Source of the DNA: Actinomycetes bacterium
GTDB taxonomy: Bacteria; Actinomycetota; Acidimicrobiia; Acidimicrobiales; RAAP-2
Length of the DNA stretch: 64,000 bases
Direction: 5' to 3'
Assembly: GCA_021827705.1 (NCBI GenBank)
Contig: JAKAUQ010000018.1
Location: 21,927 to 85,926 of the forward strand
In this document: positions 42,377-58,553 of the stretch, piece by piece
Layout: the number at the start of each line of letters is the position of its first letter
How positions within the stretch are numbered: position 1 is the first letter of the stretch
Position numbers and translations under genes: made by a program
Notes under the pieces: model-generated
The model's database searches: none
What the model saw: only the letters and a program-made list of their open reading frames with translations
What the model was told of the DNA's origin: nothing

Positions 42377-43165
42377 TCAGCGCAGGGTGGCGATCCCGCC
42401 GTCGACGGGTAGCACCGCACCGGTGATGTAGCTGGCCGCCGGCGAGGCGAGGAAGATGGCCGCCCCCGCCATGTCGGAGGGCCGCCCGATCCGCTTGAGG
42501 GGTGCGGCCTCGGCGATCTGCTCGCCGAAGGCCTCCAGGGTCGCGTGCATCATCTTGGACTCGAAGGGTCCCGGCGCGATGGCGTTGACCGTCACCAGCG
42601 GCGCGAGGGCCCGCGCCAGGTGCCGCGTCAGATGGTGGACCGCGGCCTTCGACGACGAGTAGGCGTAGGTCTCCATCTCGGGCACCCGCAAGCCGTCGAT
42701 CGACCCGATGTTGATCACGCGCGCCGGATCGGCGGGTGTGGCCCCGGTCTCCAGGGCGCCGCGCAGGAACCGCGTCAGGTGGAACGTGGCCTGGACGTTC
42801 AGGTCGAAGACGCGGGCGAAGGCCCGATCGTCGTAGTCGGCCAGCGGCGCGCCCCACGTGGCCCCGGCATTATTGACCAGGACGTCGAGCTGCCCCGTGG
42901 TCGCCAAGACCTGGTCGGCCAGCTCCTGGCACCCGGCCATCGTCGACAGGTCCGCCGGCAGGGCGGCGCAGGGGCCATCCGCGGACAGCTCGGCCGCCAG
43001 GCGCTGACAGGCCTCGGCCTTGCGCGAGGAGACAAGGACGCTGGCCCCGGCGGCCACGAAGCCGCGCACGATCATCTCACCGATGCCCCGGCTGCCCCCG
43101 GTCACCAGCACGGTGCGCCCGGCGACGTCGAAGAGCCCGCCCGCCGTGTCGGCGGCCCCGCTCAC
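42377..43165 (-). CDS. Short-chain dehydrogenase/reductase
   Basis: TGGSRGIG, NNAG, GSIDG, YSSSK (YxxxK). Confidence 0.9.
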   Translation of the reverse strand: MSGAADTAGGLFDVAGRTVLVTGGSRGIGEMIVRGFVAAGASVLVSSRKAEACQRLAAELSADGPCAALPADLSTMAGCQELADQVLATTGQLDVLVNNAGATWGAPLADYDDRAFARVFDLNVQATFHLTRFLRGALETGATPADPARVINIGSIDGLRVPEMETYAYSSSKAAVHHLTRHLARALAPLVTVNAIAPGPFESKMMHATLEAFGEQIAEAAPLKRIGRPSDMAGAAIFLASPAASYITGAVLPVDGGIATLR

Positions 43166-43167
43166 GC

Positions 43168-43575
43168 CTAACTGCCGACGCGCAGTACCGTCGTGCCCAC
43201 GGCGGTCACCGGGTCGGGCACGGTGGGATCCGGCGCGTACTGCGCCTTGATCGTCCAGTTGCCCGGCACGGTGAAGTTGAAGCCACAGATGACCCGGCTG
43301 TTGTTGACCGCCCGGAACCGGCACACCAAGTTGGGCACGCCCGCGTCGCTCGGAGAGATGGCTACCGTGCGCACGAAACCACCCGTGCCCTCAGGCAGCA
43401 CATCAACCTTCACGTTGAAGACGCCGCCGCTCACCGACGGAGCACCTCCGTTGTCGCTCAGGTCGAAAGACAGCAGAGGTGTGGGCGCCGAGGAGGAACT
43501 CGAGTCGGCCACAGCAGGAGTCGCGACGGCCACCACGGACACAACCATCGCCAGGCTGACCAGCCATCGCCGCAT
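43168..43575 (-). CDS. Secreted beta-sandwich (Ig-like) hypothetical protein
   Basis: Signal peptide MRRWLVSLAMVVSVVAVATPAVA, Ser linker, Cys pair, GNWTIKAQY motif. Confidence 0.7.
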   Translation of the reverse strand: MRRWLVSLAMVVSVVAVATPAVADSSSSSAPTPLLSFDLSDNGGAPSVSGGVFNVKVDVLPEGTGGFVRTVAISPSDAGVPNLVCRFRAVNNSRVICGFNFTVPGNWTIKAQYAPDPTVPDPVTAVGTTVLRVGS

Positions 43576-43685
43576 GGGACCACTATAGCAGGGTCCTCTC
43601 CCCTAACCGCCGATAATGTTCGTTATGTAAAGTGACGGATCAGGCAGCCCCCGGCCTGGTCACGCTCCACTAACATCACTGGGCC

Positions 43686-44111
43686 ATGGCCCCCGCCCTC
43701 TCGCTCCCGCCGCGGCGCCTGGCTGCCGTGGGCGCACTGGTCCTGATCGCGGGAGCTGCCGGGACCGCGCTGCGCGACGCCGTACTGACCTGGTGGCCCG
43801 CAGCCAGCGCGCCCCGGGCCGCCTGGCCAACGGTCATTCCCTGGGCGCTCACGGTCATCAACACGCTCGGCGTCGTCGTCGCCGTGCGCCTGCTGCGCAC
43901 GGTCCTGCGGGCCCACGACCCCAACAACCCCTGGCGTCTCGTCTGGATCACCGGCTTCCTGGGCGGATTCACCTCATACTCCAGCCTGGTGGCCGCCTGG
44001 GCCGTCGCCTGGCACCGGTCGGTTTTCGCTGGGCTGCTCGAGGCGGGACTCACGGTCGCCCTGGGGGTACTGGCCGCCCAGGCCAGCCTGCGCTGGCCGA
44101 GCCACCAATGA
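43686..44111 (+). CDS. crcB: Fluoride channel Fluc/CrcB (paralog 1, divergent)
   Basis: GAAGTALR, INTLG, TGFLGGFTSYSS. Confidence 0.78.
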   Translation: MAPALSLPPRRLAAVGALVLIAGAAGTALRDAVLTWWPAASAPRAAWPTVIPWALTVINTLGVVVAVRLLRTVLRAHDPNNPWRLVWITGFLGGFTSYSSLVAAWAVAWHRSVFAGLLEAGLTVALGVLAAQASLRWPSHQ

Positions 44112-44467
44112 CCTTCCTCCTCGTCAGCCTGTTCGGCGGAGTGGGAGCCGTTGTCCGTTTCGGCGCCGAGTACGTGACGCGCGAGCACCATCCCACGCGA
44201 CGGCCCTGGGCGACCGTCGGGGTCAACGCGCTGGGTGCCCTTCTCGTCGGCCTGGCCCTCAGCGCGCTGGCGGGACCCCGTGACGCGCACCTGCGCGACA
44301 TCGTCATCACGGGCTTCTGCGGGGGCCTGACGACATTCTCGTCGGCCTTCGCCATCCCCGCCCTCCTCCAGCGCGAGCACCACTGGGCCTACGCCGCCGC
44401 CCTGGTGCTGGCCACGCCCATCGTGGCCGGTGGGGCCTTCGCGCTCGGGCTGGCTCTGGGCCACTAG
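44108..44467 (+). CDS. crcB: Fluoride channel Fluc/CrcB (paralog 2)
   Basis: GGVGAVVRF, PWATVGVNALG, TGFCGGLTTFS; ATGA overlap with paralog 1. Confidence 0.88.
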   Translation: MTFLLVSLFGGVGAVVRFGAEYVTREHHPTRRPWATVGVNALGALLVGLALSALAGPRDAHLRDIVITGFCGGLTTFSSAFAIPALLQREHHWAYAAALVLATPIVAGGAFALGLALGH

Positions 44468-45186
44468 CCGCGCCGCGCGCGCGCGGCCTCGACCACCCAC
44501 GCGAAGGTCGGGTCCGGACGGCCCAACAGCTCGGGATGCCACTGCACGGCCAGGATCTGGCCCCCGATCGATTCGAGGCCCTCGATCTCCCCGTCGTCGG
44601 CCCGCGCGGTGACGACCAGCCCCGCGCCAACCTCGGCGACCACCTGATGGTGCAGCGAGTTCACGGCGGCCTCCTCGCCCACCAGCTGGCGCAGGTGCGA
44701 CCCCGGTGTCGTCCTGACCCTGTGCGAGGGCTGGTGACCGTCCCGGGACCACTGGGGGTGACCCCGGCCCGCCACCAGCGGCACGTCCTGGCGCAGCGAC
44801 CCGCCGCGCGCGACGTTGACCATCTGCAGGCCCCGACAGATCGCCAGGATCGGCAGGTCCCGGCGCTCGGCGGCCTCGAGCAGGGCGAGCTCCCAGGCGT
44901 CGCGCGTCGGCTCCAGGGCTCCCAGTCCGTCCTCGGGCGCGGCCCCGTAGAGCGCCGGGTCGATGTCGGCTCCCCCACTCAGGACCAGGCCGTCGAGCAG
45001 GTCGGCCACGTCCTCGACGTCCGCGTCGCGCGTCAACTGCACGGGCACGCCCCCCGCGGCCGCGACCGCGGCGGCGTAGTCGGCGAAGTGCACGTCGATC
45101 TCCAGTCCGGCCATCGCGGCCGGGACGTGCGACCCGAACCACCGGGCCGGCCAGCGCCGGCCCGTGATCCCGATCCGCGGCCTCAC
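44464..45186 (-). CDS. Gamma-glutamyl hydrolase, peptidase C26 (PuuD-like)
   Basis: LDGLVLSGGADIDP, LAICRGLQ (Cys), VNSLHHQ, AVQWHPE (His-Glu); GTGA overlap with gcvPB stop. Confidence 0.9.
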   Translation of the reverse strand: MRPRIGITGRRWPARWFGSHVPAAMAGLEIDVHFADYAAAVAAAGGVPVQLTRDADVEDVADLLDGLVLSGGADIDPALYGAAPEDGLGALEPTRDAWELALLEAAERRDLPILAICRGLQMVNVARGGSLRQDVPLVAGRGHPQWSRDGHQPSHRVRTTPGSHLRQLVGEEAAVNSLHHQVVAEVGAGLVVTARADDGEIEGLESIGGQILAVQWHPELLGRPDPTFAWVVEAARARRG

Positions 45187-46697
45187 CGCAGGCCCGCGCG
45201 CGCGGCCATGTCCTCGGTGGCGACCAGGGTCCGTGCCGCTCGGGCCTCGTCCACCCGCCCCACCGGCGTCGCCAGCGGTGCGGCGTGCACGCGCTCCGGG
45301 TCGTCGTGGGCCCGCGCGACGATGCGCTCGAGGGCCTCGGCCAGCGCCACGAGGGTCTCGGGGCTCTCGGTCTCGGTCGGCTCAATCATCAGGGCCTCGT
45401 CGACGATCAGGGGGAAGTACACCGTGGGCGCGTGGAATCCCTCGTCGAGCAGCGACTTGGCCACGTCCAGCGCGCGCACGCCCGTCGCCTCCTTGAGCGC
45501 GGTCGCGGTGACGACGCACTCGTGCATGCACGGGCGATCGAAGGCCGCCGGCAGGACCGCGGCCAGGCGCCGGCGCAGCCAGTTGGCGTTGAGCACCGCG
45601 TGCTCGGCCACCGCGGCCAGGCCCTCGGCCCCGTGGGTCTCGATGTAGGCCAGAGCCCGGGCCAGGACCAGCGCGTTGCCGTGCCAGCCGTGCACGCGCC
45701 CGATCGAGCGCGCCGGCGCCTCCCAGCCGTAGCCGTCGCCGCGGCGCACCGGGCGCGGACCCGGCAGGAAGTCCACCAGGGACTCGCCCACCGCCACCGG
45801 ACCGGCCCCCGGTCCCCCACCGCCGTGCGGCGTGGCGAAGGTCTTGTGCAGGTTCATGTGCACGATGTCGAAGCCCATGTCACCGGGACGGGCCTGGCCG
45901 AGGATCGCGTTGAGGTTGGCCCCGTCGTAGTACAGCAGGCCGCCCACGCCGTGGACCAGCTCGGCAATGGGCTCGATGTCCTCCTCGAAGAGCCCAACCG
46001 TGTTGGGGTTGGTAAGCATGATCCCGGCCACGTCGTCGCCCAGCCGCGCCGCCAGCGCCTCGAGATCAACCAGGCCCCGCTCGGTGGAGGGGACCGTCGT
46101 CACCTGGTAGCCACTGAGCGTCACTGACGCCGGGTTGGTCCCGTGGGCCGAGTCCGGGATCAGCACGCGGCGGCGCGCGTCGCCGCGTGCACGGTGGTAG
46201 GCGCGCATGAGCAGCAAGCCCGTCAGCTCGCCAGCCGCGCCCGCAGCCGGCTGCAGGGTGGCCGCGGCCATGCCGGTGATCCCACAGAGCCGCTCTTCCA
46301 GGGTAACCAGGAGCTCCAGCCAGCCCTGGGTCAAGGAGGCGTCGGCCGCCGGGTGCACGTGGGCCAGACCCGCCAGGGCGGCCACCTCGTCAGCCATCTT
46401 GGGGTTGTACTTCATGGTGCACGAGCCCAGCGGGTACGCCCCCAGATCCACCGAGTACTGGCGCGCGCTGAGGCGCGTGACGTGCCCGACCAGGTCTCGC
46501 TCGGCCAGGTCCACCGTCACCAGGCGGTCATCGCGACGGTGGGGCGCGGGGATCATGGCCTCGAGGGCGCGCGGCGCGATGCCCGTCTCGCGTAACTGAG
46601 CGGCGCTGCGCCCCGGTGAGGACAGCTCGAACATCGTGGGCTCGCTCTCGCGGCCCACCAGAGGTGCCGAGGCGGCGCGGCCGCCCGCCGCGCTCAC
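45183..46697 (-). CDS. gcvPB: Glycine dehydrogenase (decarboxylating) subunit 2
   Basis: PLGSCTMKYNPK, QPAAGAAGE, SAHGTNPAS, HMNLHKTFATPHGGGGPG (PLP Lys), MIEPTETES. Confidence 0.96.
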   Translation of the reverse strand: MSAAGGRAASAPLVGRESEPTMFELSSPGRSAAQLRETGIAPRALEAMIPAPHRRDDRLVTVDLAERDLVGHVTRLSARQYSVDLGAYPLGSCTMKYNPKMADEVAALAGLAHVHPAADASLTQGWLELLVTLEERLCGITGMAAATLQPAAGAAGELTGLLLMRAYHRARGDARRRVLIPDSAHGTNPASVTLSGYQVTTVPSTERGLVDLEALAARLGDDVAGIMLTNPNTVGLFEEDIEPIAELVHGVGGLLYYDGANLNAILGQARPGDMGFDIVHMNLHKTFATPHGGGGPGAGPVAVGESLVDFLPGPRPVRRGDGYGWEAPARSIGRVHGWHGNALVLARALAYIETHGAEGLAAVAEHAVLNANWLRRRLAAVLPAAFDRPCMHECVVTATALKEATGVRALDVAKSLLDEGFHAPTVYFPLIVDEALMIEPTETESPETLVALAEALERIVARAHDDPERVHAAPLATPVGRVDEARAARTLVATEDMAARAGLR

Positions 46698-48049
46698 GAC
46701 GCCACCGCCTCGCCCAGTGCCGCGACGTAGGCGTCGAGGTCCCGGGCCCGGTGGCGCTCGGTCACGGTCACGATGAGCACGTCATCCCCCTCTCCTCGGG
46801 TGCCGTCCCCCGGATCCAGCGCCCGGGCTGCGACCCCGCCGAGGATGCCCCTTCGCGCCATCGCGGCCAGCACCGGCTCGACCGGGCGCCCCAGGCGCAG
46901 CGCGAACTCGCGCACGAACGGGGCCTCACTGGCGGCTTGCACGCCGGGGATCTGCGTCACCCGCTCGGCCAGCTCGTGGGCGCCGCTCGCGCAGCGCAGC
47001 GCCATCTCGTGCAGACCGTCGGTGCCGAGCCACCCCAGCTGGATCGCCGCGGTCACCGCCATCAACGTCTGGTTCGTGCACACGTTCGACGTCGCGCGCT
47101 CGCGCCGGATGTCCTGCTCGCGTGCGCGCAGGGTCGTGACGAAGGCCCGCCGCCCCGCGGTATCGGCTGTCTCGCCCACGATGCGGCCCGGCAGGCGCCG
47201 CACCAGCTCCTCGCGCACGGCGAACAGCCCGAGGTAGGGACCGCCGAAGGAGAGCGCCGTGCCCAGCGCCTGGCCCTCCCCCACGAACACGTCGGCGCCC
47301 CACGAGCCCGCCGAGCGCACCAAGGCGGCCGCCACCGGATCGCCCGCCACCACCAGCAGCGCGCCGCTCTCGTCGGCCACGGCTCGCGCGATGGCGACAT
47401 CCTCTAGGTAGCCCAGGTAGTTCGGGTAGCCCACCACCACCGCGGCCAGGTCGTCACGGGCCCCCATCGGCCACGCGGTCACCCCGCCAACCAGCGGCAC
47501 CTCCTCGATCTGGTGACCCGTCCCGGCCGCGAAGGTGCGGGCCGCGGCTCGCCAGTGCGGATGGACCCCGCGCGACAACAGGACCCCCTGGCGTCCCGTG
47601 GTGCTGGCAGCCAGGTTCAGGGCCTCGACCAGGGAGGCCGCCCCGTCGTAGAGCGAGGCGTTGGCCACCGGCAGCCCGCTCAGCCGGGCGACCAGTGTCT
47701 GGTACTCGAAGAGGGCCTGGAGGACGCCTTGGGCCACCTCGGGCTGGTAGGGCGTATAGGCCGTCACGAACTCGCTGCGCGAGGCCAGGGCGCGCACCAC
47801 GGGCGGGATGTCGTGGTCGTAGGCCCCCACCCCGGCAAAGCACGTCAGACCCGCCGCGACGTTGCGATCGGCCAGGGCCGCCAGCCCGTCGAGCACGTCG
47901 AGCTCGCTGCGGCCCGCGGGGATCGGCAGGCCTCCCGCCAGGCGGACCGCCGCGGGCAGGTGGGCGAAGAGGTCCTCCAGGCGCTCCAGACCGAGGAAGG
48001 ACAGCATCGCGGCGTCCTGCTCGGCGGTGTGGGGAAGGTAGTTCGGCAC
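46694..48049 (-). CDS. gcvPA: Glycine dehydrogenase (decarboxylating) subunit 1
   Basis: YLPHT, FAGVGAYDH, FVTAYTPYQPEVAQG.LQALFEYQT, NASLYDGA, REQDIRRERATSNVCTNQ. Confidence 0.96.
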   Translation of the reverse strand: MPNYLPHTAEQDAAMLSFLGLERLEDLFAHLPAAVRLAGGLPIPAGRSELDVLDGLAALADRNVAAGLTCFAGVGAYDHDIPPVVRALASRSEFVTAYTPYQPEVAQGVLQALFEYQTLVARLSGLPVANASLYDGAASLVEALNLAASTTGRQGVLLSRGVHPHWRAAARTFAAGTGHQIEEVPLVGGVTAWPMGARDDLAAVVVGYPNYLGYLEDVAIARAVADESGALLVVAGDPVAAALVRSAGSWGADVFVGEGQALGTALSFGGPYLGLFAVREELVRRLPGRIVGETADTAGRRAFVTTLRAREQDIRRERATSNVCTNQTLMAVTAAIQLGWLGTDGLHEMALRCASGAHELAERVTQIPGVQAASEAPFVREFALRLGRPVEPVLAAMARRGILGGVAARALDPGDGTRGEGDDVLIVTVTERHRARDLDAYVAALGEAVAS

Positions 48050-48050
48050 C

Positions 48051-49103
48051 TCAGCGCGCCTTGGTCACGAAGGGCAAGGCCGTCACGACCGCCGGAGCCT
48101 CCCGGTCCCGCAGCCGCACGCGGACCGTGCGGCCCGCGGCGAGGTCCCCGGACAGCAGCCCGAGTCCGATCCCCCGCTCCAGGATGGGGCTGAAGTTCCC
48201 CGAGCACAGCTCGCCGACTTCCTCATCGTCGGCCAGCACCACGGCACCCTCGCGCAGGGGCCGCCGATCCTCGCCGATCAGGCCCGTGAGATTTCGGCGC
48301 ACGCCGCGCTCGCGCTCGGCCTCCACCGCCGCGCGGCCCCGGAAGCTCGGCTTGGACCATCCCAGGACCCAGCCCAGCCCGGCCTCGAGCGTCGTCGACG
48401 TCCGGCTCAGCTCGTGGCCGTACAGCGGCAGGGCAGCCTCCAGGCGCAGCGTGTCGCGCGCCCCCAGGCCCGCCGGCTGGATTCCGGCCTCGACCAGGCG
48501 TTCGAAGATGTCCCCAGCCACCTCGTTCGGGGCGCTGATCTCGATGCCCGGCTCTCCGGTGTAGCCCGTGCCGGCCACGCGCACCTCCACCCCGTGCACG
48601 TCGAAGCGCGCCACCCGGAAGCGCCCAACCTCTCCGAAGCGCGGGTCCACCGTCGCGGCCCGCTCGCGCGCGCGAGGTCCCTGCACCGCGAGCACGCAGC
48701 GCGTCGCGGTCACGTCGACCCCGCTCACCGCCTCCAGGACCCCGGCGGTGTTGGAGGCGTTGGGCATCACGTCGAACTCGTCGGGTGACACCCACCAGAT
48801 GATCAGGTCGTCGACCACGGTCCCCTCGGGCGTCAGCAGGTGCGTGTACTGCGCGCGGCCCGGCTCGATCTTGTCGAGGTCGTTGGTGAAGGCCTCCTGC
48901 AGCTCGGCGTAGGCACCTGGCCCGTCGCAGCGCACGGTGCCCAGGTGGCTGACGTCGAAGACCACGGCGTCACGGCGACAGGCCAGGTGCTCGTGCACCG
49001 TGCCCTCGGCGTAGGACAGAGGCATGAGCCACCCCCCGAAGGGGACAAACTTGGCACCCCGCGCTCGATGGTGATCCTCTAGGAAAGGTCGACGCTCGCT
49101 CAC
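48051..49103 (-). CDS. gcvT: Glycine cleavage system aminomethyltransferase T
   Basis: FVPFGGWLMP..Y, VFDVSHLG, TGYTGEPG.E, GLGARDTLRLEA. Confidence 0.95.
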   Translation of the reverse strand: MSERRPFLEDHHRARGAKFVPFGGWLMPLSYAEGTVHEHLACRRDAVVFDVSHLGTVRCDGPGAYAELQEAFTNDLDKIEPGRAQYTHLLTPEGTVVDDLIIWWVSPDEFDVMPNASNTAGVLEAVSGVDVTATRCVLAVQGPRARERAATVDPRFGEVGRFRVARFDVHGVEVRVAGTGYTGEPGIEISAPNEVAGDIFERLVEAGIQPAGLGARDTLRLEAALPLYGHELSRTSTTLEAGLGWVLGWSKPSFRGRAAVEAERERGVRRNLTGLIGEDRRPLREGAVVLADDEEVGELCSGNFSPILERGIGLGLLSGDLAAGRTVRVRLRDREAPAVVTALPFVTKAR

Positions 49104-49116
49104 GGCGTCACTCTAT

Positions 49117-49506
49117 CTAGGCGGCGATGACGATTCCGGGGTCCATGCCATGGCGCGCCACCAGGGCGCGAAAGTCCCGCTGGTAGACGACGGTCAGGGC
49201 GATCTCGGGGTACAGCTGGCGAAAGGTGCGCACCTTGCGGTTCTTGCGCGTCACGAGCCGCTGATCGGCCACTGTCAGCTCCACGAAGGCCCTCTGGTCC
49301 ACCAGGTAGAAGTCGGGCCGGAACCCGCGCGTGGGCCGCCCACTCTCGTCCCAGGCCAGAGGGAACTCCATGGGCTCGTAGAGCCAGGACACCCCGTAGA
49401 GCGAGAGCAGGTCGGCGAAGAGTCGCTCGCTGGGGTGGGCGAAGCGCAGGTCGACGCGCGGGCGTCCCGCCGGGTGGTGGGCGCCCTCGACCGCGAACCG
49501 GTTCAC
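49117..49506 (-). CDS. Small PD-(D/E)xK-like (restriction-endonuclease fold) protein
   Basis: GTGA overlap with MerR stop; FAHPSERLFA..L..YG..W.YEP, F.PDFYL.....VELT, RKNRK. Confidence 0.6.
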   Translation of the reverse strand: MNRFAVEGAHHPAGRPRVDLRFAHPSERLFADLLSLYGVSWLYEPMEFPLAWDESGRPTRGFRPDFYLVDQRAFVELTVADQRLVTRKNRKVRTFRQLYPEIALTVVYQRDFRALVARHGMDPGIVIAA

Positions 49507-49949
49507 GCCGAGCGTTTCTCCCTCTCCGACTCTGTGGTGTTCGCGAGCGTGCTGGCCAGTGCAGCCACCACCCCTCCCAAGGGCACGATGTTGAAGACGC
49601 CCTGGCCACCGCGCAGCAGGTCGACCAGGTCGCCGTCGGTGCGCGCGAGCACCGAGCCGCGCTCGCTCAGGACCAGGCTCGCCGACTTCAGGTCGGCGCC
49701 CAGCGCATCGCGCAGGCAGGCGACGGCCTGGCGGGCCCGCGTCAGCGACACGCCCGCGTCCAGCAGCGACTTGATGACCTTGACCTCCAGCACGTCCTCG
49801 TAGCTGTAAGAGCGCTTGGTCCCGCTCCCCCGGGCCTCCTGGATCGAGGGCGTGATCAGCCCCGTGCGCGACCAGTAGTCCAACTGTCGGTACGTCACCC
49901 CGGTGAGCCGGCACACGGCCGGTCCGCCGAAGCCCATCGAGCGATCCAT
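49503..49949 (-). CDS. MerR-family HTH regulator (Rv1830-like)
   Basis: GFGGPAVCRLTGVTYRQLDYWSRTGLITPS...GSGTKRSYS..D. Confidence 0.9.
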   Translation of the reverse strand: MDRSMGFGGPAVCRLTGVTYRQLDYWSRTGLITPSIQEARGSGTKRSYSYEDVLEVKVIKSLLDAGVSLTRARQAVACLRDALGADLKSASLVLSERGSVLARTDGDLVDLLRGGQGVFNIVPLGGVVAALASTLANTTESEREKRSA

Positions 49950-49975
49950 CCTGCCTCCCGACTCTGGGCACCTCC

Positions 49976-50005
49976 ATCGTAGCCAGTGAACTACAGCCGT
50001 GTCAT
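49976..50005 (-). promoter_or_regulatory. Candidate merR promoter with 18-bp spacer and dyad
   Basis: Minus strand: ATGACA-18 nt-TACGAT, with GTAG-N8-CTAC running across the spacer into the -10. Confidence 0.35.
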
Positions 50006-50039
50006 TCGGGCCGGTCGCTCTGGGGCCGGTGCGGTCAGG

Positions 50040-50804
50040 TCACAGTGGGGTCACGTAGGCGCTGGAGATGCCCCCGTCGACCAGGAAGGTGGCTCCCGTC
50101 ACGAAGGATGCCTCGTCCGAGGCCAGGAAGAGCGCCGCGTTGGCGATCTCCTCGGGCTCGGCGAAGCGGCCCAGGGGGACGTGGACCAGGCGCCGGGCAG
50201 CCCGCTCGGGGTCCTTGGCGAACAGCTCGCGCAGGAGGGGTGTGTTGACGGGGCCCGGGCACAGAGCGTTCACGCGCACGTGCTGGCGGGCAAACTCCAC
50301 GGCCAGCTCCCGGCTCATCGACAAGACGCCCCCCTTGGAGGCCGAGTAGGAGATCTGCGAGGTGGCCGACCCCACGAGGGCCACAAAGGATGCGGTATTG
50401 ATGACCGACCCACCACCCCGCTCCAGCAGCAGGGGGATGCCGTAGTGGCAGCCCAGGTACACCGAGGTCAGGTTGACGTCCTGGACCCGGCGCCACGCGT
50501 CCAGGCCCGTGGTCAGGATCGAGTCGTCATCGCTCGGGGAGATCCCGGCGTTGTTGAAGAGCACGTCGAGCCCGCCGAAAGCCGTGACGGTGGCCGCGAA
50601 CATGTCGCGCACGCTGGCCTCGTCAGCCACGTCGACTTCCACGAACAGGCCGTCGATGGACGCGGCTAGCTCACGCCCGGTCGCGGCGTCGATGTCGGCG
50701 ACCACCACCGAGGCTCCCTCGTGGGCGAAGCGGATGGCCGCTGCGCGCCCGATGCCGCTGCCCGCACCGGTGATCACGCAGATCTTGTTCTCGAGTCGTC
50801 CCAT
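50040..50804 (-). CDS. Short-chain dehydrogenase of the gamma-glutamylamide pathway
   Basis: TGAGSGIG, NNAG, SATSQISYSASKGG; TAATG overlap with ALDH. Confidence 0.9.
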   Translation of the reverse strand: MGRLENKICVITGAGSGIGRAAAIRFAHEGASVVVADIDAATGRELAASIDGLFVEVDVADEASVRDMFAATVTAFGGLDVLFNNAGISPSDDDSILTTGLDAWRRVQDVNLTSVYLGCHYGIPLLLERGGGSVINTASFVALVGSATSQISYSASKGGVLSMSRELAVEFARQHVRVNALCPGPVNTPLLRELFAKDPERAARRLVHVPLGRFAEPEEIANAALFLASDEASFVTGATFLVDGGISSAYVTPL

Positions 50805-52174
50805 TACTCCTCCGTCGCTATGAAGACGTTCTTCTCTTCGCTGAAGGCCAGCAGGGCATTGGGGCCGAGCTCACGACCCAGGCCGGACTGCTTGAAGCCG
50901 CCAAAGGGCGTCGCGTAGCGCACCGACGCGTTGGAGTTCACCGACAGCGTCCCGGTCTCCACGGCGCGCGCCACGCGCAGGGCCCGACCCACATCCCGGG
51001 TCCACAGCGAGCCCGAGAGGCCGAAGGGGCCCTCGTTGGCCAGGGCCACGGCCTCGGCCTCGTCAGCAAAGGGGACCACCGACACCACCGGCCCGAAGAT
51101 CTCCTCCTGGTAGGCCCGGCTCGCCCGATTCCCGACCAGGACCGTCGGGGCGTACCAGTAGCCTGCGCCACGGGGCCGCGAGCCCACGAAGGCCACGTCG
51201 GCCGAGTCGACGTAGGCGGCCACGGTCTCGCGGTGCGCCCCGCTGATCAGGGGGCCCATCTGGCTGCGCTCGTCGGCCGGATCCAGCACGCGCACTGCCT
51301 TGACGGCGGCCTCGAAGAGCTCCATGAACCGCTCGTAGGCGCGCTGCTCGACCAGGATGCGCGAGCGCGCGCAGCAGTCCTGGCCCGCGTTGTCGAACAC
51401 CGCGTAGGGCGCCTGTGCCGCGGCCCGCTCGATGTCGGCGTCGGCGAACACGATGTTGGCGCTCTTGCCTCCGAGCTCCAAGGTGATCCGCTTCATCTGC
51501 GCGGCACAGCCCGCCATCACCGTGCGCCCCACGGCAGTGGACCCGGTGAAGCAGATCTTGCGCACCGCCTGGTGCGAGACGAGCCGGCCGCCCACCAGCG
51601 CCCCGTCGCCCGTGACAACCTGGAAGACGCCCTCGGGCAGACCCGCCTCCAACGCCAACTCACCCAGGCGCAGGGCCGTCAGCGGCGTCAGGGTGGCGGG
51701 CTTCAGCACGACAGCGTTGCCGGCCGCCAGCGCCGGGGCGAACCCCCACGACGCGATCGGCATCGGAAAGTTCCACGGGGCGATCACCCCGACCACGCCG
51801 AGTGGCTCGTGAAAGGTCACGTCGACGCCGCCAGCCACGGGGATCTGCTGGCCCGTGAAGCGCTCGGGGGCGCCCGCGTAGTACGCCAAGACGTCGCGGA
51901 CGTTGCCCGCCTCCCAGCGCGCGTTGGTGATGGTGTGGCCGGCGTTGGCGACCTCCAACTGCGCCAGCTCCTCGACGTGAGCGTCGACCACCTCGGCGAA
52001 GCGCGAAAGCAGGCGAGACCGGTCCACGGGCGTCACGCGGCGCCACGCCGGCGCCACGTCGGCCGCGCGCGCGATGATCGCGTCGACCTCAGCCAGGGTG
52101 TGCCGAGGAACCGCCCCGATGACCTCCTCGGTTGACGGGTTGATGATGCTATGCGTGTCGCTCATCTCGCTCAC
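50804..52174 (-). CDS. NAD-dependent aldehyde dehydrogenase (gamma-glutamyl-aldehyde type)
   Basis: PWNFP, KPA, FTGST, LELGGKS, AGQDCC (catalytic Cys), EEIFGP, PFGGFKQSG. Confidence 0.93.
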   Translation of the reverse strand: MSEMSDTHSIINPSTEEVIGAVPRHTLAEVDAIIARAADVAPAWRRVTPVDRSRLLSRFAEVVDAHVEELAQLEVANAGHTITNARWEAGNVRDVLAYYAGAPERFTGQQIPVAGGVDVTFHEPLGVVGVIAPWNFPMPIASWGFAPALAAGNAVVLKPATLTPLTALRLGELALEAGLPEGVFQVVTGDGALVGGRLVSHQAVRKICFTGSTAVGRTVMAGCAAQMKRITLELGGKSANIVFADADIERAAAQAPYAVFDNAGQDCCARSRILVEQRAYERFMELFEAAVKAVRVLDPADERSQMGPLISGAHRETVAAYVDSADVAFVGSRPRGAGYWYAPTVLVGNRASRAYQEEIFGPVVSVVPFADEAEAVALANEGPFGLSGSLWTRDVGRALRVARAVETGTLSVNSNASVRYATPFGGFKQSGLGRELGPNALLAFSEEKNVFIATEE

Positions 52175-53538
52175 AGTCTCTCGAATCCGCGCACGCGCTC
52201 CCAGTCGGTGACCGACGCCTGGAACGCCTCGAGCTCCCCGCGGGCGGCGCGCCCGTAGTGGGCCACCACGTCCTGGCCGAAGGCCGCGCGCGCCAGCGCG
52301 GAGCCCTCGAACAGCTCGATCGCCTCACCAAGGGTCGTCGGGACGCGCGCGACGTCGGCCTGGTAGGCGTTGCCGGCGTAGGCCGGAGGCGCACTGAGCC
52401 CCTCGTCGATGCCGGCCAGGCCGGCCGCGACCAGTGCGGCCTCGGCCAGGTAGGGATTGACGTCTCCGCCCGGGATGCGGCACTCCACACGAAACGAGCC
52501 GCCGTGGCCCACCACCCGGAAGGCGCAGGTTCGGTTGTCGAGACCCCAGGCCAGGGCCGTGGGAGCAAACGACCCGGCCACGAAGCGCTTGTAACTGTTG
52601 ACGTTCGGGGCCAGCAGCAGCGACAGCTCGCGGACGTGAGCGATCAGACCGCCCAGGAACGCCGAGAAGATGGGCGACTCGCCGAACGGGCCGTCACCGG
52701 CGAACACCGGCCTTCCCGCCTCGTCGCGCAGTGAGAGGTGGATGTGGCACGAGTTGCCCTCGCGCTCGTTGAACTTGGCCATGAACGTGACACTCAGGCC
52801 CTCTTGGGCAGCGATCTCCTTCACCCCCAGCTTGAAGAGGCCCTGCTCGTCGCACTTGTCGACGAGGTCCGCGTAGCGAAAGGCGATCTCGTGCTGCCCG
52901 AAGTTGCACTCTCCCTTGACCGACTCGACCACCATGCCCGCGCCGCGCATGGCGCGCCGCACGCGGCCCAGGAACGGCTCCACGCGCCCCGTGCCGAGCA
53001 GGGAGTAGTCCACGTTGTACTGGTTGGCCGGCGTCAGGTCGCGGTACCCCCGCGACCACGCGTCCTCGTAGCGATCGGTGAAGACGAGGAACTCCAGCTC
53101 GGTCCCGGTCACGCCGGTCCAGCCGCGCTCGGCCAAGCGCGCCACCTGGCGCTGGAGCACCTGGCGCGGGGAGACGGTCACGTCGGCCCCCGCCGTCGAG
53201 CGCACGTCGCAAAAGACGATCGCCGTGGCGTCGTGCCAGGGCACCAGGCGCGTCGAGTCCCAGTCCGGGACCAGCACCACGTCGCCGTAGCCCTGGTCCC
53301 ACGAGGTCAGGGCGAAGCCGTCGAGCGTTCGCATGTCGACGTCGGAGGCCAGCACGTAGGCGCAGGCCTCGACGCGGTCGTCACCCGACTCTTCCACCAA
53401 GAACCGCGCATCCATGCGCTTGCCCTGCAGGCGTCCTTGCACGTCGGTCACCGCCACCAGAACGGTGTCGATCGTGCCCTCGGCCACGGCCGCCGCCAGG
53501 GACTCGCGCGTCAGCCTCCCGGTTCGCTGATCACCCAC
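52171..53538 (-). CDS. Glutamine synthetase-like gamma-glutamylamide synthetase (GlnA4-like)
   Basis: AAGGAG SD before GTG 53538; DVQGRLQGKR, GTELEF, KGECNFGQHEI, KEIAAQEG...FMAKFNEREGNSCHIHLS, RVECRIPGGDVNPY. Confidence 0.88.
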   Translation of the reverse strand: MGDQRTGRLTRESLAAAVAEGTIDTVLVAVTDVQGRLQGKRMDARFLVEESGDDRVEACAYVLASDVDMRTLDGFALTSWDQGYGDVVLVPDWDSTRLVPWHDATAIVFCDVRSTAGADVTVSPRQVLQRQVARLAERGWTGVTGTELEFLVFTDRYEDAWSRGYRDLTPANQYNVDYSLLGTGRVEPFLGRVRRAMRGAGMVVESVKGECNFGQHEIAFRYADLVDKCDEQGLFKLGVKEIAAQEGLSVTFMAKFNEREGNSCHIHLSLRDEAGRPVFAGDGPFGESPIFSAFLGGLIAHVRELSLLLAPNVNSYKRFVAGSFAPTALAWGLDNRTCAFRVVGHGGSFRVECRIPGGDVNPYLAEAALVAAGLAGIDEGLSAPPAYAGNAYQADVARVPTTLGEAIELFEGSALARAAFGQDVVAHYGRAARGELEAFQASVTDWERVRGFERL

Positions 53539-53597
53539 ACCGGCTCCTTGCTCGTGCTGATCGATCGTACCGGCCCCCGGTACGCCCATCGCGCGGG

Positions 53598-54686
53598 TCA
53601 GTCCTCCTCGACGTCAACGCGCCCATCGCGCGGCGAGACCAGCACGTCACGGGCCACCACCGAGAGCGCCACGCGGTCACCGTGGTTGAGGTCCCGGGCC
53701 ATGTCGCTGCGTACGTCCACGCGGACCTCGGCCGACTCCACGCTCACCGTGACGCGCGTGATGGCCCCGAGGAAGCTCTTGTGCACAACGGAGGCCGGCC
53801 CCGCCGGATCGATGACGATGGCCACGTCCTCGGGCCGCAGCACCGCGTCGACGTCGCGGGCGGTCAGGTCCGCGTTGCGAACCGTCACCTCCTGGCCCCA
53901 CAGACCGACGGTCGCGCCGTCGCGACGTACCGGCACCCGGCTCGACACCCCGACGAAGTGCGCGACGAAGGCACTGGTGGGGCGGGAGTACAGCTCGGCG
54001 GGCGTGGCCGTCTGCTCCCCACGCCCCTCGCGCATCACGCAGACGCGGTCAGCCATGGAGAGAGCCTCTTCCTGGTCGTGGGTCACGAACACGGTCGTGA
54101 TCGCGAGACGCTGCTGGAGCGAGCGGATCTGATCGCGCAGGCCAGTACGCACCTTGGCGTCCAGCGCCGACAGGGGCTCGTCGAGCAGGAGGACGCGCGG
54201 CTCGATCGCCAGGGCCCGGGCCAGAGCGACGCGCTGCTGCTGGCCGCCCGAGAGCTGGTGTGGGTACTTCTCGGCGTGCTCGTGGAGGCCCACCAGCTCG
54301 AGCAGCTCGTGAGCCTTGTCACGGCGCGCCGTCGAGCGCACGCCCCGCATGCGCAACCCGAAGCCGACGTTGTGGAGGGCACTCATGTTGGGAAACAGCG
54401 AGTAGCTCTGGAAGACCATCCCCATGTCGCGATCCTGGGGCGACACGCGCGCCACGTCGTGCCCGTCGACCAGCACCTGGCCGTGGTCGACCAACTCGAA
54501 GCCGGCCAGGGCCCGCAGCGCCGTCGTCTTGCCGCAACCCGAGGGCCCGAGGAGTGCAACGAGCTCACCGGGCTCGACGTCGAGGGAGAACCCGTCGAGG
54601 GCCCGCGTGCGGCCAAAGACGCGCACCAGCTCGCGCAGCTCGACGCGTGCGCCACTGCTCCCACCGTTGGCTTGTGCTTGGCTCAC
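53598..54686 (-). CDS. ABC transporter ATP-binding protein (PotA-like, TOBE domain)
   Basis: [33 protein letters not shown]. Confidence 0.93.
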
Positions 54687-55504
54687 GCCACCTCCGCCTT
54701 GCGTCGGGACCGCCGTGACTCGGACCGGTCCAAAGAGACCATCACCGTGATCAGCACCCACGTACCGATCAGCGACAGCATCGACACCATGGTCGCGATG
54801 TGCCCGTCGGTCTGCTGGAACTGATAGATCCACACCGGCAGCGTCGTCCACAGGTCCAGGCTGGCCATGGTGAACTCACCGAGCACCAGGGCCAGCGTCA
54901 GCACTGACGCTGACAGGATGCCCGCGCGCAGGTTGGGCAGGATGACGCGCCACAGCGTCTGGGGCCCGTTGGCTCCCAGCGACCGGCTGGCCTCGACCAG
55001 CGTCTTGAGATCGATGGCGGAGATCCCGGCGTCCAGTGAGCGGTAGACGAAGGGCATCGTCAAGATCACGTACATCAGGCTGAGCAGGTACGGCGACGCC
55101 TTGAGCCAGATCGGCGCGGCCCGCAGCACGCCGAGGATGAGCACGATGGGCGGGATCACGATCGGCAGCACCGTCACGAACTCCAGGAGGCGCCGCACGC
55201 GCGGCAGATGCAGGTGGACGTAGATGGTGGTCGGCACCATCAGCACGAGGGTTCCCACGAGGGTCGTGAAGGCCAGCTTGATGGAGAGCCAGAACGCTCC
55301 GGTGAAGCCGATCTGGGAGGGAATGGCGCGCAGCGCGTAGAGCGACCAGTGTCCCGCATCGTCCTGGAACGAGAAGCGCAGCCCGGCGTAGAGCGGGATG
55401 AGAAAGTACGCGGCGGCTATCCCGAGGACGAGGCCGCGCCACACGCGCACCCGGTGGCGTCGCGGTGCGGGGGCCACACCGGCAGCGGAGGTCAGCGCAA
55501 CCAT
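54683..55504 (-). CDS. ABC transporter permease (PotC-like)
   Basis: TM helices; LVEASRSLGA (EAA motif); overlaps neighbours. Confidence 0.9.
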   Translation of the reverse strand: MVALTSAAGVAPAPRRHRVRVWRGLVLGIAAAYFLIPLYAGLRFSFQDDAGHWSLYALRAIPSQIGFTGAFWLSIKLAFTTLVGTLVLMVPTTIYVHLHLPRVRRLLEFVTVLPIVIPPIVLILGVLRAAPIWLKASPYLLSLMYVILTMPFVYRSLDAGISAIDLKTLVEASRSLGANGPQTLWRVILPNLRAGILSASVLTLALVLGEFTMASLDLWTTLPVWIYQFQQTDGHIATMVSMLSLIGTWVLITVMVSLDRSESRRSRRKAEVA

Positions 55505-56424
55505 TTCGACGCCCGTCGCTGGATGAGCCCGTAGAGGATCATCGTCACAGCCAGCACCACGAACATGCCGAAGCCGATCGCGTAACCGATGTTCTCCTGG
55601 CCCGAAATGGCATTGCCGTTGAGCAGGTTGCCGATCTGGATCGGGGCCAGGGTCACCGTTCCGGCAGTCAGGGTCTCCGCCGTCGCGTAGGCGGCGAAGG
55701 AGCTCCCGAACAGCAGCAGCATGCCGCCCAGGACCGACGGGAACAGCACCGGCAGGCCGATGTGGCGCCAGAAGCGCCAGGTCGAGGCGCCCAGGTTCGA
55801 AGCGGCCTCCCGCCACGCGGGACGCAGCGCACCCAGTGCCGGAGTGATCACCAACACCATGAGGGGAACCTGGAAGTAGAGGTAGACGAAGGCGACGCCG
55901 TAGAACGAGTAGAGGTTGAACCCAAGGTTCCAGGGGTTCAGATGGATCGCCGCCAGCCACGACGTGAGGATCCCGGTGGACCCCAGCGTGGCGATGAACA
56001 TGAAAGTCAGGTTGATGCCCCCGAAGTTGGCCAGGACTCCCGACGCGGTCGCGATCATCCGGCGCAGGAAGGGGCTGCGCGATGTGGCGATGGCGTAGGC
56101 CAGCGTCAGCCCCAGGAATCCGGGGATCACGGAGGTGAGCGCCGCGAGCAGGATCGAGTTCTCGAAGCCCAGCAGATAGGTCCCGTGGGTGATGGTCGAC
56201 ACATTGGCCAGCGTTAGGTGGCCCTTCGGATTCCGGAATGCGTAGTCGATGACCGCCAGGATCGGAATGCCCAGCCCCAAGAAGACGTAGACGATGAAGG
56301 GCGTGACCGCCGCGGCACGCCTCAGGCCACGCCACCGCCGGACGCCCGACGCCACCCGCGCGGCTGACAGTTCGTCAGCCCCACGGGTGGCGTCGGCGTC
56401 CCCCGCCAGACCGGACTCACTCAC
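55492..56424 (-). CDS. ABC transporter permease (PotB-like)
   Basis: TM helices; WREAASNLGA (EAA motif). Confidence 0.9.
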   Translation of the reverse strand: MSESGLAGDADATRGADELSAARVASGVRRWRGLRRAAAVTPFIVYVFLGLGIPILAVIDYAFRNPKGHLTLANVSTITHGTYLLGFENSILLAALTSVIPGFLGLTLAYAIATSRSPFLRRMIATASGVLANFGGINLTFMFIATLGSTGILTSWLAAIHLNPWNLGFNLYSFYGVAFVYLYFQVPLMVLVITPALGALRPAWREAASNLGASTWRFWRHIGLPVLFPSVLGGMLLLFGSSFAAYATAETLTAGTVTLAPIQIGNLLNGNAISGQENIGYAIGFGMFVVLAVTMILYGLIQRRASKWLR

Positions 56425-57585
56425 CTACGGGCCTGAGGTGACCTCGGTTGGCCACAGCTTGGACACGACGGTCTCGGCCTTGAGGATCTGGGCCTGGGTC
56501 GGGTACTGCACACCCGTCGTAGGCGCCGGCGGCAGAGCTGCCAGCCACTTGGCGTTGGCCAGGTGGTGCGCCGACATGAAGGGGAGCTCCACCGGTCGGG
56601 CCATGCCCGCCAGCCACAGGTTCTGACCCTGGTTCGAGTAGAGGAACTCCTCCCACAGGCGCGCGGCCGCCGGGTCCGGGGCCGACGCGCTGATGGCCTG
56701 GGTGTAGTACTCGGCCAGCGCCGCGTCCGAGGGGATCACAACCTTCCACTTGTGCGTGTAGCCCGGCAGCGCCTTGACCTCACTGGCCTGCAGGTAGTCC
56801 CACCAGACCACGATGTTGGTCGCCCCGCTCTGGACCGTGGATGGGCCCGCCACGGTGGCCACGAAGTTGCCGACCTTGTTCATCGTCGAGAAGTAGTTGA
56901 CTCCCGGCTTGACGTTGTTCAGCGATCCGCCCGAGGCGATGGCCGCGGCCATCACCGCCGCCAGAGCCGACGACGACGCCGTGGGGTTGTTGTTGATCCC
57001 AATCTTGTAGCCCTGACCCGGCTTCAGCATCTGGGCGAACGAGGTGGGACAGTGCTTCACCACGGTGGTGTCGCACCCGATGGCCACGAACCCGCCGTAG
57101 TCGTCGAACCAGTACCCCCCGGGTTGCTTCAGCGCCGCGGGAATCCGCGACCACGTCTGCACGCGGTACGGGGACAGCAGGTGTCGCTGCTGAGCCGTGA
57201 TAGCGAAGTTCGTGCCCACATCGATGACATCGGGCGCGCTCGTGCGGCCTCGGTCCGCGATGATCGCGTTGATCTCGTCCTGGCTCGAGCCATCCGGGTT
57301 GTACGAGTTCACCTTGATGCCGTACTTCTTCGCGAAGGTGTTGATCAACGCCCCGTAGTTCGCCCAGTTCGGCGGCAAGGCGATGACGTTGAGCTTGCCT
57401 TCCTTCCTCGCCGCGGCGATCAGTGCGCTCATCGATGTCGGCCCCGACTTCGACAGCGTCTGCACCTTGGCCCAATTGACGGCGCCGGCTCCGCCGGCTG
57501 ACCCCACGCTGAGCGTGGCGAACGACAGCAGGCTGATGGCCGCCGTTCCCGCTGCGAGCGCTGCTCTCAGGTTCGCAGATCTCAT
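56425..57585 (-). CDS. ABC substrate-binding protein (PotD/AfuA-like class)
   Basis: Signal peptide, ARKEGKLNVIALPPNWANYG, APDVIDVG, VVWWDY, AARLWEEFLYS..GQ. Confidence 0.9.
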   Translation of the reverse strand: MRSANLRAALAAGTAAISLLSFATLSVGSAGGAGAVNWAKVQTLSKSGPTSMSALIAAARKEGKLNVIALPPNWANYGALINTFAKKYGIKVNSYNPDGSSQDEINAIIADRGRTSAPDVIDVGTNFAITAQQRHLLSPYRVQTWSRIPAALKQPGGYWFDDYGGFVAIGCDTTVVKHCPTSFAQMLKPGQGYKIGINNNPTASSSALAAVMAAAIASGGSLNNVKPGVNYFSTMNKVGNFVATVAGPSTVQSGATNIVVWWDYLQASEVKALPGYTHKWKVVIPSDAALAEYYTQAISASAPDPAAARLWEEFLYSNQGQNLWLAGMARPVELPFMSAHHLANAKWLAALPPAPTTGVQYPTQAQILKAETVVSKLWPTEVTSGP

Positions 57586-57734
57586 GGATTGCCCTCACGT
57601 TCCCGCACGAGTGTGCTCGAGCCGTCCCCCTGACGGTCCGAGCGTCACAGTATCCGAGTTGCCTGTCCGGCGTGTGACCGGGGCGCACCAGTCTCGTGAA
57701 GAGTCGCCCATGCCCTCACCGGTAGGGTGACCTC

Positions 57735-58553
57735 GTGGAACCTCGCTGCGCCTTGACCATCGCGGGCTCCGACTCCGGGGGCGGGGCCGGAATCCAGGCC
57801 GACCTGCGCACCTTTAGTGCATTCGGCGTTCACGCCACGACCGCGCTCACGGCGGTTACCGCGCAAAACACCCGCACGGTGAGCGCTGTTGTCCCGCTCC
57901 GGCCCCGCGACGTGGTCGCCCAAGTTGACGCGGTCCTCGAGGACTTCCCCATCCGTGCGGTCAAGACCGGCATGCTGGCCGAGCCCGGGATCGTGCTGGC
58001 GGTGGCGCAACTGGCCGAGCAGAATCGCCTCGCGCATCTCATCGTCGACCCCGTCCTGGTCTCCTCGACTGGGTCACTGCTGCTCGCCGACGGCGGGATC
58101 GAGGCCTACCGCGACGCCCTGATCCCGCAGGCTGAGCTGATCACCCCCAACCTGCCCGAGGCAGCTGCTCTGGCCGGCGTCGACGTGCGCGACCTGCGTG
58201 ACGTCGCGTCCCTGGCAGCGGTGGCGCGAGCACTCCAGCGTCTGGGCGCACGGGCCGTCCTGGTCAAGGGGGGCCACGTGACGTCGCCGGGGGCCGCCGT
58301 CCACTCACCCGACGTCCTGGTCTTGGCCGACGAGGTCGTCGTCTTGGAGGCCGAGCGCGTGGCCACCGTCAACGACCACGGCACCGGGTGCTCCCTCTCG
58401 GCGGCCATCGCGGCAGGACTCGCCCTGGATCGCTCCCTGCCTGACGCCGTCCGGGACGCCAAGGCGTTTGTGCTGGCCGCCTTGCGCGGAGCGGAGCGGT
58501 GGCACCTCGGTGGCGGGCACGGGCCCATCGATCACTTCGGATGGGGGACGTGA
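57735..58553 (+). CDS. thiD: Hydroxymethylpyrimidine/phosphomethylpyrimidine kinase
   Basis: [49 protein letters not shown]. Confidence 0.95.

Follow-up and report, generated by a model that had tools for sequence, protein, structure and literature searches.

The 64,000-nucleotide (nt) stretch analyzed here (the window; GenBank assembly GCA_021827705.1, contig JAKAUQ010000018.1, positions 21,927 to 85,926), from an Actinomycetes bacterium of the order Acidimicrobiales, carries 13 tightly packed minus-strand genes that fill positions 44464-57585. They encode an ATP-binding cassette (ABC) importer, a glutamine synthetase (GS)-like ligase, an aldehyde dehydrogenase (ALDH), a short-chain dehydrogenase/reductase (SDR), a MerR-family regulator, a 129-amino-acid (aa) open reading frame (ORF), the glycine cleavage proteins GcvT, GcvPA, and GcvPB, and a hydrolase of peptidase family C26 (here, C26). 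The ORF list and family searches bear out a preliminary description of the window, made from its letters alone, which had recognized 13 contiguous and co-oriented genes at these positions. We think it probable, if far from assured, that two transcription units within this locus jointly convert an imported amino alcohol (most likely ethanolamine) into one-carbon units by a route that does not depend on B12.

The substrate, each enzymatic step, and any co-regulation are predictions. The amine would enter through the PotD/PhnS-class ABC system of the first unit, and the ligase, of the GlnA4 type, would use ATP to join it to the gamma-carboxyl of glutamate. The SDR would then convert the alcohol to an aldehyde and the ALDH would convert the aldehyde to gamma-glutamylglycine, from which C26, the product of the last gene of the second unit, would release glycine and regenerate glutamate. 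Finally, GcvP and GcvT, together with GcvH, would break glycine down to CO2, NH3, and methylene-tetrahydrofolate.

The ligase is the component whose relationships are clearest. Its assignment as GlnA4-type is supported by its phylogeny, its synteny, and the residues of a published active-site model, which together agree with the resemblance to Streptomyces coelicolor GlnA4 noted in the preliminary description. In a tree of 103 GS-like sequences, in which SCO1613 (S. coelicolor GlnA4) and Rv2860c themselves were not included, the ligase groups with cluster-borne GlnA4-type ligases in a clade of 88 sequences (100% support). Members of this clade come from the ligase-C26-ALDH-SDR clusters of Streptomyces, Kitasatospora, Nocardia, Amycolatopsis, Kribbella, and Nonomuraea, among others (59-65% identity; 59-62% for Streptomyces and Kitasatospora). 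Long branches outside the clade carry Escherichia coli PuuA, a second GS-like ligase found in congeners, and the GS of the genome itself, so that the phylogenetic comparison with PuuA, also proposed in the preliminary description, comes out on the GlnA4 side. Section 12 of PMC6529630 lists, for the model of S. coelicolor GlnA4, the metal, ATP, and glutamate residues. Their counterparts in the window ligase are E147, E149, E210, E217, E260, G261, H265, H267, R318, F324, R341, E352, and R354, with Phe324 standing in place of the GS flap residue E327, as in the GlnA4 model; the comparison covered the metal, ATP, glutamate, and flap positions other than D50. The ligase scores below the NCBIfam cutoffs for the type I and type III GS equivalogs and reaches 191.6 bits against the putrescine-ligase model GGputSyn, for which the cutoff is 650. 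Its best matches in the PDB are 11zs (1e-117) and 5dm3 (1.2e-112), the second of which we take to be the Chromohalobacter salexigens enzyme. We predict that the ligase acts on ethanolamine and glutamate in an ATP-dependent manner.

The two dehydrogenases are in keeping with this prediction. The SDR scores 438 bits against NF004713 (cutoff 404), its PDB relative is 4wec (1e-106), and the position of an SDR after the ALDH is conserved in GlnA4-type clusters. The ALDH is 62-76% identical to the ALDHs of such clusters at 70 or more loci. An alcohol dehydrogenase paired with an ALDH, without an oxidase or a transaminase, fits an amino alcohol as the substrate.

The closest characterized system is that of S. 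coelicolor, in which GlnA4 (SCO1613) is required for growth on ethanolamine and belongs to the cluster SCO1610-1615; the actinobacterial steps after GlnA4 (dehydrogenase, ALDH, hydrolase, and glycine as product) have only been proposed (PMC6529630). Its GS-like ligase shares the model residues with that of the window, an ALDH and a dehydrogenase come next in both, and in both the release of glycine and glutamate has been proposed for a hydrolase. Uptake differs, with an APC permease in S. coelicolor and an ABC importer in the window. The window also lacks an EpuRI-type regulator, and its hydrolase, unlike that of the S. coelicolor cluster, ends the gcv operon and comes from a sister C26 lineage.

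A gamma-glutamyl ethanolamine pathway is likewise on record for proteobacteria, as a prediction for C. salexigens (cited in PMC6529630) and as the eto operon of Phaeobacter sp. MED193 (PMC10132767). The eto route resembles that predicted for the window in its gamma-glutamylase, two dehydrogenases, and glycine-yielding amidohydrolase, and in having a binding-protein-dependent importer, which in the window is a candidate ethanolamine transporter; however, the proteobacterial importer is a tripartite ATP-independent periplasmic (TRAP) system (EtoX) rather than an ABC system, and the hydrolase family may differ. The text of PMC10132767 does not mention glycine cleavage, and among the papers that we searched, none connected GlnA4-type clusters with gcv operons. 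The E. coli Puu pathway (PuuA, PuuB, PuuC, and PuuD) also proceeds by gamma-glutamylation and likewise employs a GS-like ligase, a C26 hydrolase, and an ALDH, but the window ligase is 31% identical to PuuA and lies off the PuuA branch, and the window cluster has no PuuB-type oxidase. With its ligase and hydrolase both below the curated cutoffs and no oxidase in the cluster, the locus does not qualify as an E. coli-type Puu system. The preliminary description knew of no account of the complete route with an ABC importer and the glycine cleavage system in one locus, a claim of novelty that was too strong given that the chemistry is already published (PMC6529630, PMC10132767). What is new relative to the published route is the ABC importer, the hydrolase as last gene of the gcv operon, MerR-headed control in place of a riboswitch, and the recurrent docking of GlnA4-type clusters onto gcv.

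Within the window, the 13 genes most likely form two transcription units, one extending from the binding protein to the SDR and the other from the MerR gene to C26 (Table 1). The promoter-like match upstream of MerR (50005-49976) is the only sigma-70-like one in 43500-58500, and just 13 nt separate the 129-aa ORF from gcvT; the second unit therefore appears to begin at MerR and not at gcvT. Thus, the division into at least two units made in the preliminary description stands, whereas the separate gcvT promoter that it invoked was not seen. We saw no terminator-like site between the ligase half and the gcv half. MerR and the 129-aa ORF overlap as GTGA, and gcvT, gcvPA, and gcvPB abut or overlap by their ORF coordinates. 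The gcvPB stop and the C26 start again overlap as GTGA, so that the terminal hydrolase is tied to gcvPB rather than to the ligase operon, as first described; ligase, ALDH, and SDR share one unit, and the hydrolase lies outside it, five genes downstream in the gcv unit.

A MerR gene upstream of gcvT is conserved across the genus. The 129-aa ORF is present in most congeners and missing from two (G021 and G165), in which MerR directly precedes gcvT. It had initially been labeled nuclease-like, and we dropped the label because the ORF has no match in Pfam, NCBIfam, or the PDB. The gcvT, gcvPA, and gcvPB genes are single-copy in the genome, and gcvH is found about 20 kb away, shortly past the edge of the window on the same contig; the genome thus encodes the T, P (as PA and PB), and H proteins of the glycine cleavage system. 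Serine hydroxymethyltransferase is encoded elsewhere in the genome. The assembly measures 1.78 Mb and is 97% complete; within it we found no EutB, Fe-S serine dehydratase, second GS-like ligase, or APC permease. The locus region has a G+C content of ~72%, and an Rfam search of 43000-59000 (E values up to 0.1) returned no glycine riboswitch or other RNA.

Comparison with other actinobacteria provides a separate line of evidence for the proposed product. Among 80 named loci carrying relatives of the window ligase, we identified GlnA4-type clusters beside gcv genes in two further groups. Five Amycolatopsis loci carry ligase-C26-ALDH-SDR, a tandem glycine riboswitch, a 956-aa GcvP, GcvT, an L-serine dehydratase (sdaA), and a GntR gene, with the gcv genes on the strand of the cluster. 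Eight Streptosporangiaceae loci, from Nonomuraea, Sphaerisporangium, Streptosporangium, Microbispora, and Sphaerimonospora, carry ligase-ALDH-SDR, usually with C26, and then GcvT on the same strand, either immediately or 5-7 kb downstream. A riboswitch precedes GcvT in the Streptosporangiaceae loci that were examined in detail, and an L-serine dehydratase lies downstream of gcvT in one of them (L049), as it does in L044. Five of these Amycolatopsis and Streptosporangiaceae genomes have no canonical gcvT other than the adjacent copy. These riboswitch-controlled loci share with the window a GlnA4-type cluster followed by the sole gcv operon; the window differs in that the unit begins with a MerR-family gene, that two proteins, GcvPA and GcvPB, make up a split P protein, and that C26 is appended.

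Because the three docking groups occupy separate, well-supported clades of the ligase tree, with lineages lacking the adjacency between them, and because their gene orders differ, we count three gains. By a rough estimate, an operon would fall within 10 kb of gcv by chance in ~1% of cases per lineage, and on this informal reckoning three chance gains among ~25 family-level lineages are unlikely. The repeated, independent linkage to the sole gcv operon, accompanied by serine dehydratase in two of the groups, constitutes comparative evidence that glycine is the product of the pathway. We also noted three loci with a looser arrangement, in a Pseudonocardia-clade metagenome-assembled genome (MAG; L065), Pseudonocardia (L068), and Thermoleophilaceae (L080). 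Each has ligase-C26-SDR without an ALDH and, a few kilobases upstream on the other strand, a distant member of the GcvT family (28-32% identity).

The importer is less informative as to the substrate. The NCBIfam PhnS models score only ~40 bits against the binding protein, far under their cutoffs, and its only PDB relative is 5t1p, an unnamed protein. The nearest NCBIfam model for the ATPase is PhnT2 (382.8 bits; cutoff, 457.7). The nearest curated families are aminoethylphosphonate and polyamine importers, all of them below cutoff. We considered the genomic contexts of binding-protein homologs as a clue to the substrate and set them aside as heterogeneous and uninformative. Congeners carry an APC permease in place of the ABC importer; its candidacy as an Eat-type ethanolamine permease was also rejected, with TIGR00907 as the best NCBIfam model and a score below the cutoff.

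One possibility is that the pathway handles another amine and that its proximity to gcv is incidental. Candidates would be 3-aminopropanol (leading to beta-alanine) or some other amino alcohol, 2-aminoethyl compounds (for example, phosphoethanolamine and aminoethylphosphonate), or a polyamine. The affinities of the importer lean in this direction, as do the JGI labels of binding-protein homologs, which call them putative spermidine/putrescine binders, and a 73%-identical binding protein that adjoins a class-III aminotransferase and an ALDH. GS-like ligases are moreover often promiscuous (PMC13740247). Nevertheless, we judge another amine to be quite unlikely as the substrate. An SDR and an ALDH without an oxidase or a transaminase are unsuited to diamines, and the recurring gcv and serine dehydratase neighbors point to glycine. 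In addition, the clade of the window ligase matches that of S. coelicolor GlnA4, which is needed for growth on ethanolamine (PMC6529630), with the proviso that SCO1613 itself was not among the sequences of our tree.

To place the locus in its evolutionary setting, we surveyed all 194 species genomes of the genus, in which the window genome is designated G000. Relatives that have names are MAGs of Acidimicrobiaceae, with soil, peat, and fen as their sources. Of the 194 genomes, 146 have the ligase, 181 have gcvPB, and 169 have a C26 ortholog. The usual layout in congeners consists of thiD, then thiG-MerR-ORF-gcvT-gcvPA-gcvPB, an interval of 0-30 kb, C26, and crcB. C26 lies no more than 200 nt from gcvPB in at least 26 genomes and 1-30 kb downstream of it, on the same contig, in 82 others, with a mode at 7.3-7.9 kb. 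The synteny of C26 with gcvPB, which the preliminary description had proposed to check across Acidimicrobiia, holds genus-wide as a downstream position but not as a fixed distance. The same survey reverses the suggestion that the hydrolase had joined the gcv operon here: C26 is found downstream of gcvPB throughout the genus, and it was the hydrolase-less ligase operon that came later, in one small clade.

The GlnA4-type ligase-ALDH-SDR operon is normally located away from gcv. In G006, a one-contig genome, the two are 1.3 Mb apart, and the ligase operon has a divergent APC permease and no C26. Across the 194 genomes, a ligase lies ~5.5-6.3 kb from gcvPB only in G000, G150, G079, G074, and G089, which form a clade with ligase identities of 80% or more. 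The metagenome contigs L021 and L023/L024 share the fused gene order, so the arrangement is not peculiar to one assembly. An earlier view, drawn from 24 congeners, that the adjacency of ligase and gcv was unique to this genome was overturned by the whole-genus search and these contigs; uniqueness had been named beforehand as an outcome that would count against the proposal, and the adjacency is in fact shared with four congeners and the contigs.

One of the contigs also preserves an apparent intermediate state. On L023/L024, from a relative at 80% identity, thiG still lies between SDR and MerR (L023:13508-14320), and in other congeners it lies between thiD and MerR. In the window genome (97% complete), thiD remains at 57735-58553 and thiG was not found anywhere. 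Retention of thiG between SDR and MerR indicates that thiD and thiG were the neighbors between which the ABC-ligase operon (7.7 kb) inserted, and that G000 lost thiG afterwards.

In most congeners, the space between gcvPB and C26 is occupied by an island of 7-8 kb, which is absent from the window genome (examples are L003:3200-11300, from G005, and L001, L005, L006, L012, L020, and L113). In G005, the island encodes a MarR regulator, an acetoacetate-decarboxylase-like protein, a LigB dioxygenase, an ALDH, an FAA hydrolase, a second GS-like ligase, and a cytochrome P450. The second ligase is 30% identical to the window ligase, and by its gene content the island looks like a gamma-glutamylation-linked route for aromatic amines.

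This history raises the question as to whether C26 is the hydrolase of the ligase pathway. The protein retains the family motifs at Cys117 (ICRG) and His-Glu (WHPE), the genome encodes no other true C26, and we found no FGase-family hydrolase in it. Against the PuuD equivalog it scores 95.5 bits (cutoff, 266). Among ligase-bearing congeners, 139 of 146 have C26, and the seven exceptions are 75-94% complete. In three congeners (G073, G077, and G103; loci L105, L106, and L107), the single C26 resides inside an eight-gene operon ordered binding protein-permease-permease-ATPase-C26-ligase-ALDH-SDR, with an importer of the same ABC family (63-70% identity). These copies nest within the genus C26 clade. 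The idea that the ligase cluster's own C26 had moved to gcv was rejected by the C26 tree. Because the basal genus branches of this tree are copies adjacent to gcvPB, the C26-gcvPB adjacency probably predates the island as well as the insertion of the ligase operon.

Those basal branches would also suit a C26 that serves as an accessory to glycine cleavage or folate metabolism, acting on folate gamma-glutamyl tails or scavenged gamma-glutamyl peptides instead of on the product of the ligase pathway, and the persistence of C26 beside gcvPB in the ligase-less genomes G017, G021, G022, and G165 would suit it as well. However, the ligase pathway of this genome would then be left without a hydrolase, three congeners have C26 within the ligase operon, and we know of no bacterial C26 with such an accessory role. 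We therefore regard this explanation as very improbable.

Several observations weigh against the proposed ethanolamine route. C26 is kept in 30 of the 48 ligase-less congeners, including streamlined genomes without a neighboring second-ligase island. The genus C26 clade (97% support) is sister to, and not nested in, the clade of C26 proteins borne in GlnA4-type clusters of other taxa (85% support), and its nearest outgroup member (in G028) has an uninformative gene context. Given the P450, second-ligase, and ring-cleavage island beside it in most congeners, C26 may serve other gamma-glutamyl amides. Binding-protein homologs at 62-73% identity occur in unrelated gene contexts (L117 and L119), one at 73% beside a class-III aminotransferase and an ALDH and one at 62% beside a glycerol kinase and a GlpD-like dehydrogenase; these varied contexts suggest that the importer family may carry different small amines or glycerophospho-compounds. 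The GS4 enzyme of Mycobacterium tuberculosis was reported in 2026 to use ethanolamine poorly (PMC13740247). Last, the fused layout represents a single evolutionary event, confined to one clade and to 5 of the 146 ligase-bearing congeners.

This confinement would also be expected if the juxtaposition were neutral, that is, if the ABC-ligase operon had landed between thiD and thiG by chance, C26 abutted gcvPB because the island is absent, and the units were unrelated in function and regulation. The variable gcvPB-C26 interval across the genus and the promoter-like site of its own before MerR are in line with such an account. Set against it are the docking of ligase clusters at three points of the ligase tree, each time beside the genome's one canonical gcv operon and in its orientation, where chance would give ~1% per lineage by the rough estimate above, and the relocation of C26 into the ligase operon in other congeners. 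On balance, we consider neutral juxtaposition unlikely, and we continue to favor a joint route from ethanolamine to one-carbon units.

A more general interpretation can be offered tentatively. GlnA4-type clusters may have docked at least three times on the single gcv operon of their hosts, creating ethanolamine-to-one-carbon supra-operonic units in which the glycine made by the pathway would switch on its own disposal, through the riboswitch in Amycolatopsis and Streptosporangiaceae and through the MerR-headed unit in the window genus. The glycine-releasing C26 of this genus would belong permanently to the gcv operon and would serve several gamma-glutamylation pathways (more than one). Amycolatopsis and Nonomuraea are culturable organisms in which the pathway can be tested, and in both the glycine riboswitch directly after the cluster could act as a built-in reporter. 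For the abundant, streamlined Acidimicrobiaceae of soil and peat, the locus suggests the use of phospholipid-derived ethanolamine as a source of nitrogen and one-carbon units, without B12 or microcompartments.

Table 1. Features of the window locus and glycine riboswitch aptamers at related loci of Amycolatopsis and Streptosporangiaceae. Positions without a locus prefix are those of the window. The start of permease 2 was inferred from 273-aa gene calls in relatives (L021 and L023).
Feature	Position	Strand	Evidence or remark
ABC substrate-binding protein, PotD/PhnS-like	56425..57585	-	Pfam SBP_bac_6, 4.2e-18
ABC permease 1	55492..56424	-	Pfam BPD_transp_1; 92% identity to called gene in L021
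ABC permease 2	about 54683..55504	-	Pfam BPD_transp_1 on long ORF
ABC ATPase with TOBE domain	about 53598..54686	-	Pfam ABC_tran, TOBE_2
GS-like ligase, GlnA4-type, predicted gamma-glutamylethanolamide synthetase	52171..53538	-	Pfam Gln-synt_C, 2.7e-93
ALDH, predicted to convert gamma-glutamyl aldehyde to gamma-Glu-Gly	50804..52174	-	Pfam Aldedh, 1.3e-153
SDR alcohol dehydrogenase, predicted to oxidize gamma-glutamylethanolamide	50040..50804	-	NCBIfam NF004713 (PRK06057)
Sigma-70-like promoter match, ATGACA-18-TACGAT	49976..50005	-	In 90-nt SDR-MerR gap; consensus match only
MerR-family regulator, heads gcv unit	49503..49949	-	Pfam MerR_1, 3.8e-14
Conserved 129-aa ORF	49117..49506	-	No family match
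gcvT, aminomethyltransferase	48051..49103	-	NCBIfam NF001567, 351.9 bits (cutoff, 300)
gcvPA	46694..48049	-	NCBIfam NF001696, 506 bits (cutoff, 364)
gcvPB	45183..46697	-	NCBIfam NF003346, 669.9 bits (cutoff, 441)
C26 hydrolase, predicted gamma-Glu-Gly hydrolase	44464..45186	-	Pfam Peptidase_C26 (PF07722), 1.7e-57
Glycine riboswitch aptamers, tandem	L044:14332-14519		Between GlnA4-type cluster and gcvP or gcvT
Glycine riboswitch aptamers, tandem	L076:14401-14595		Between GlnA4-type cluster and gcvP or gcvT
Glycine riboswitch aptamers, tandem	L059:14206-14405		Between GlnA4-type cluster and gcvP or gcvT
Glycine riboswitch aptamer, one reported	L049:14271-14368		Between GlnA4-type cluster and gcvP or gcvT
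Glycine riboswitch aptamer, one reported	L070:14531-14632		Between GlnA4-type cluster and gcvP or gcvT

In one congener, G023 (L010:4443-5679), gcvPB matches in two or three pieces, with C26 ~200 nt further on, which suggests either a disrupted gene or an assembly error. On the far side of C26 in the window, a pair of genes for the fluoride channel CrcB (43686-44467, plus strand) converges on the hydrolase gene, and this flank is kept with C26 across the genus.

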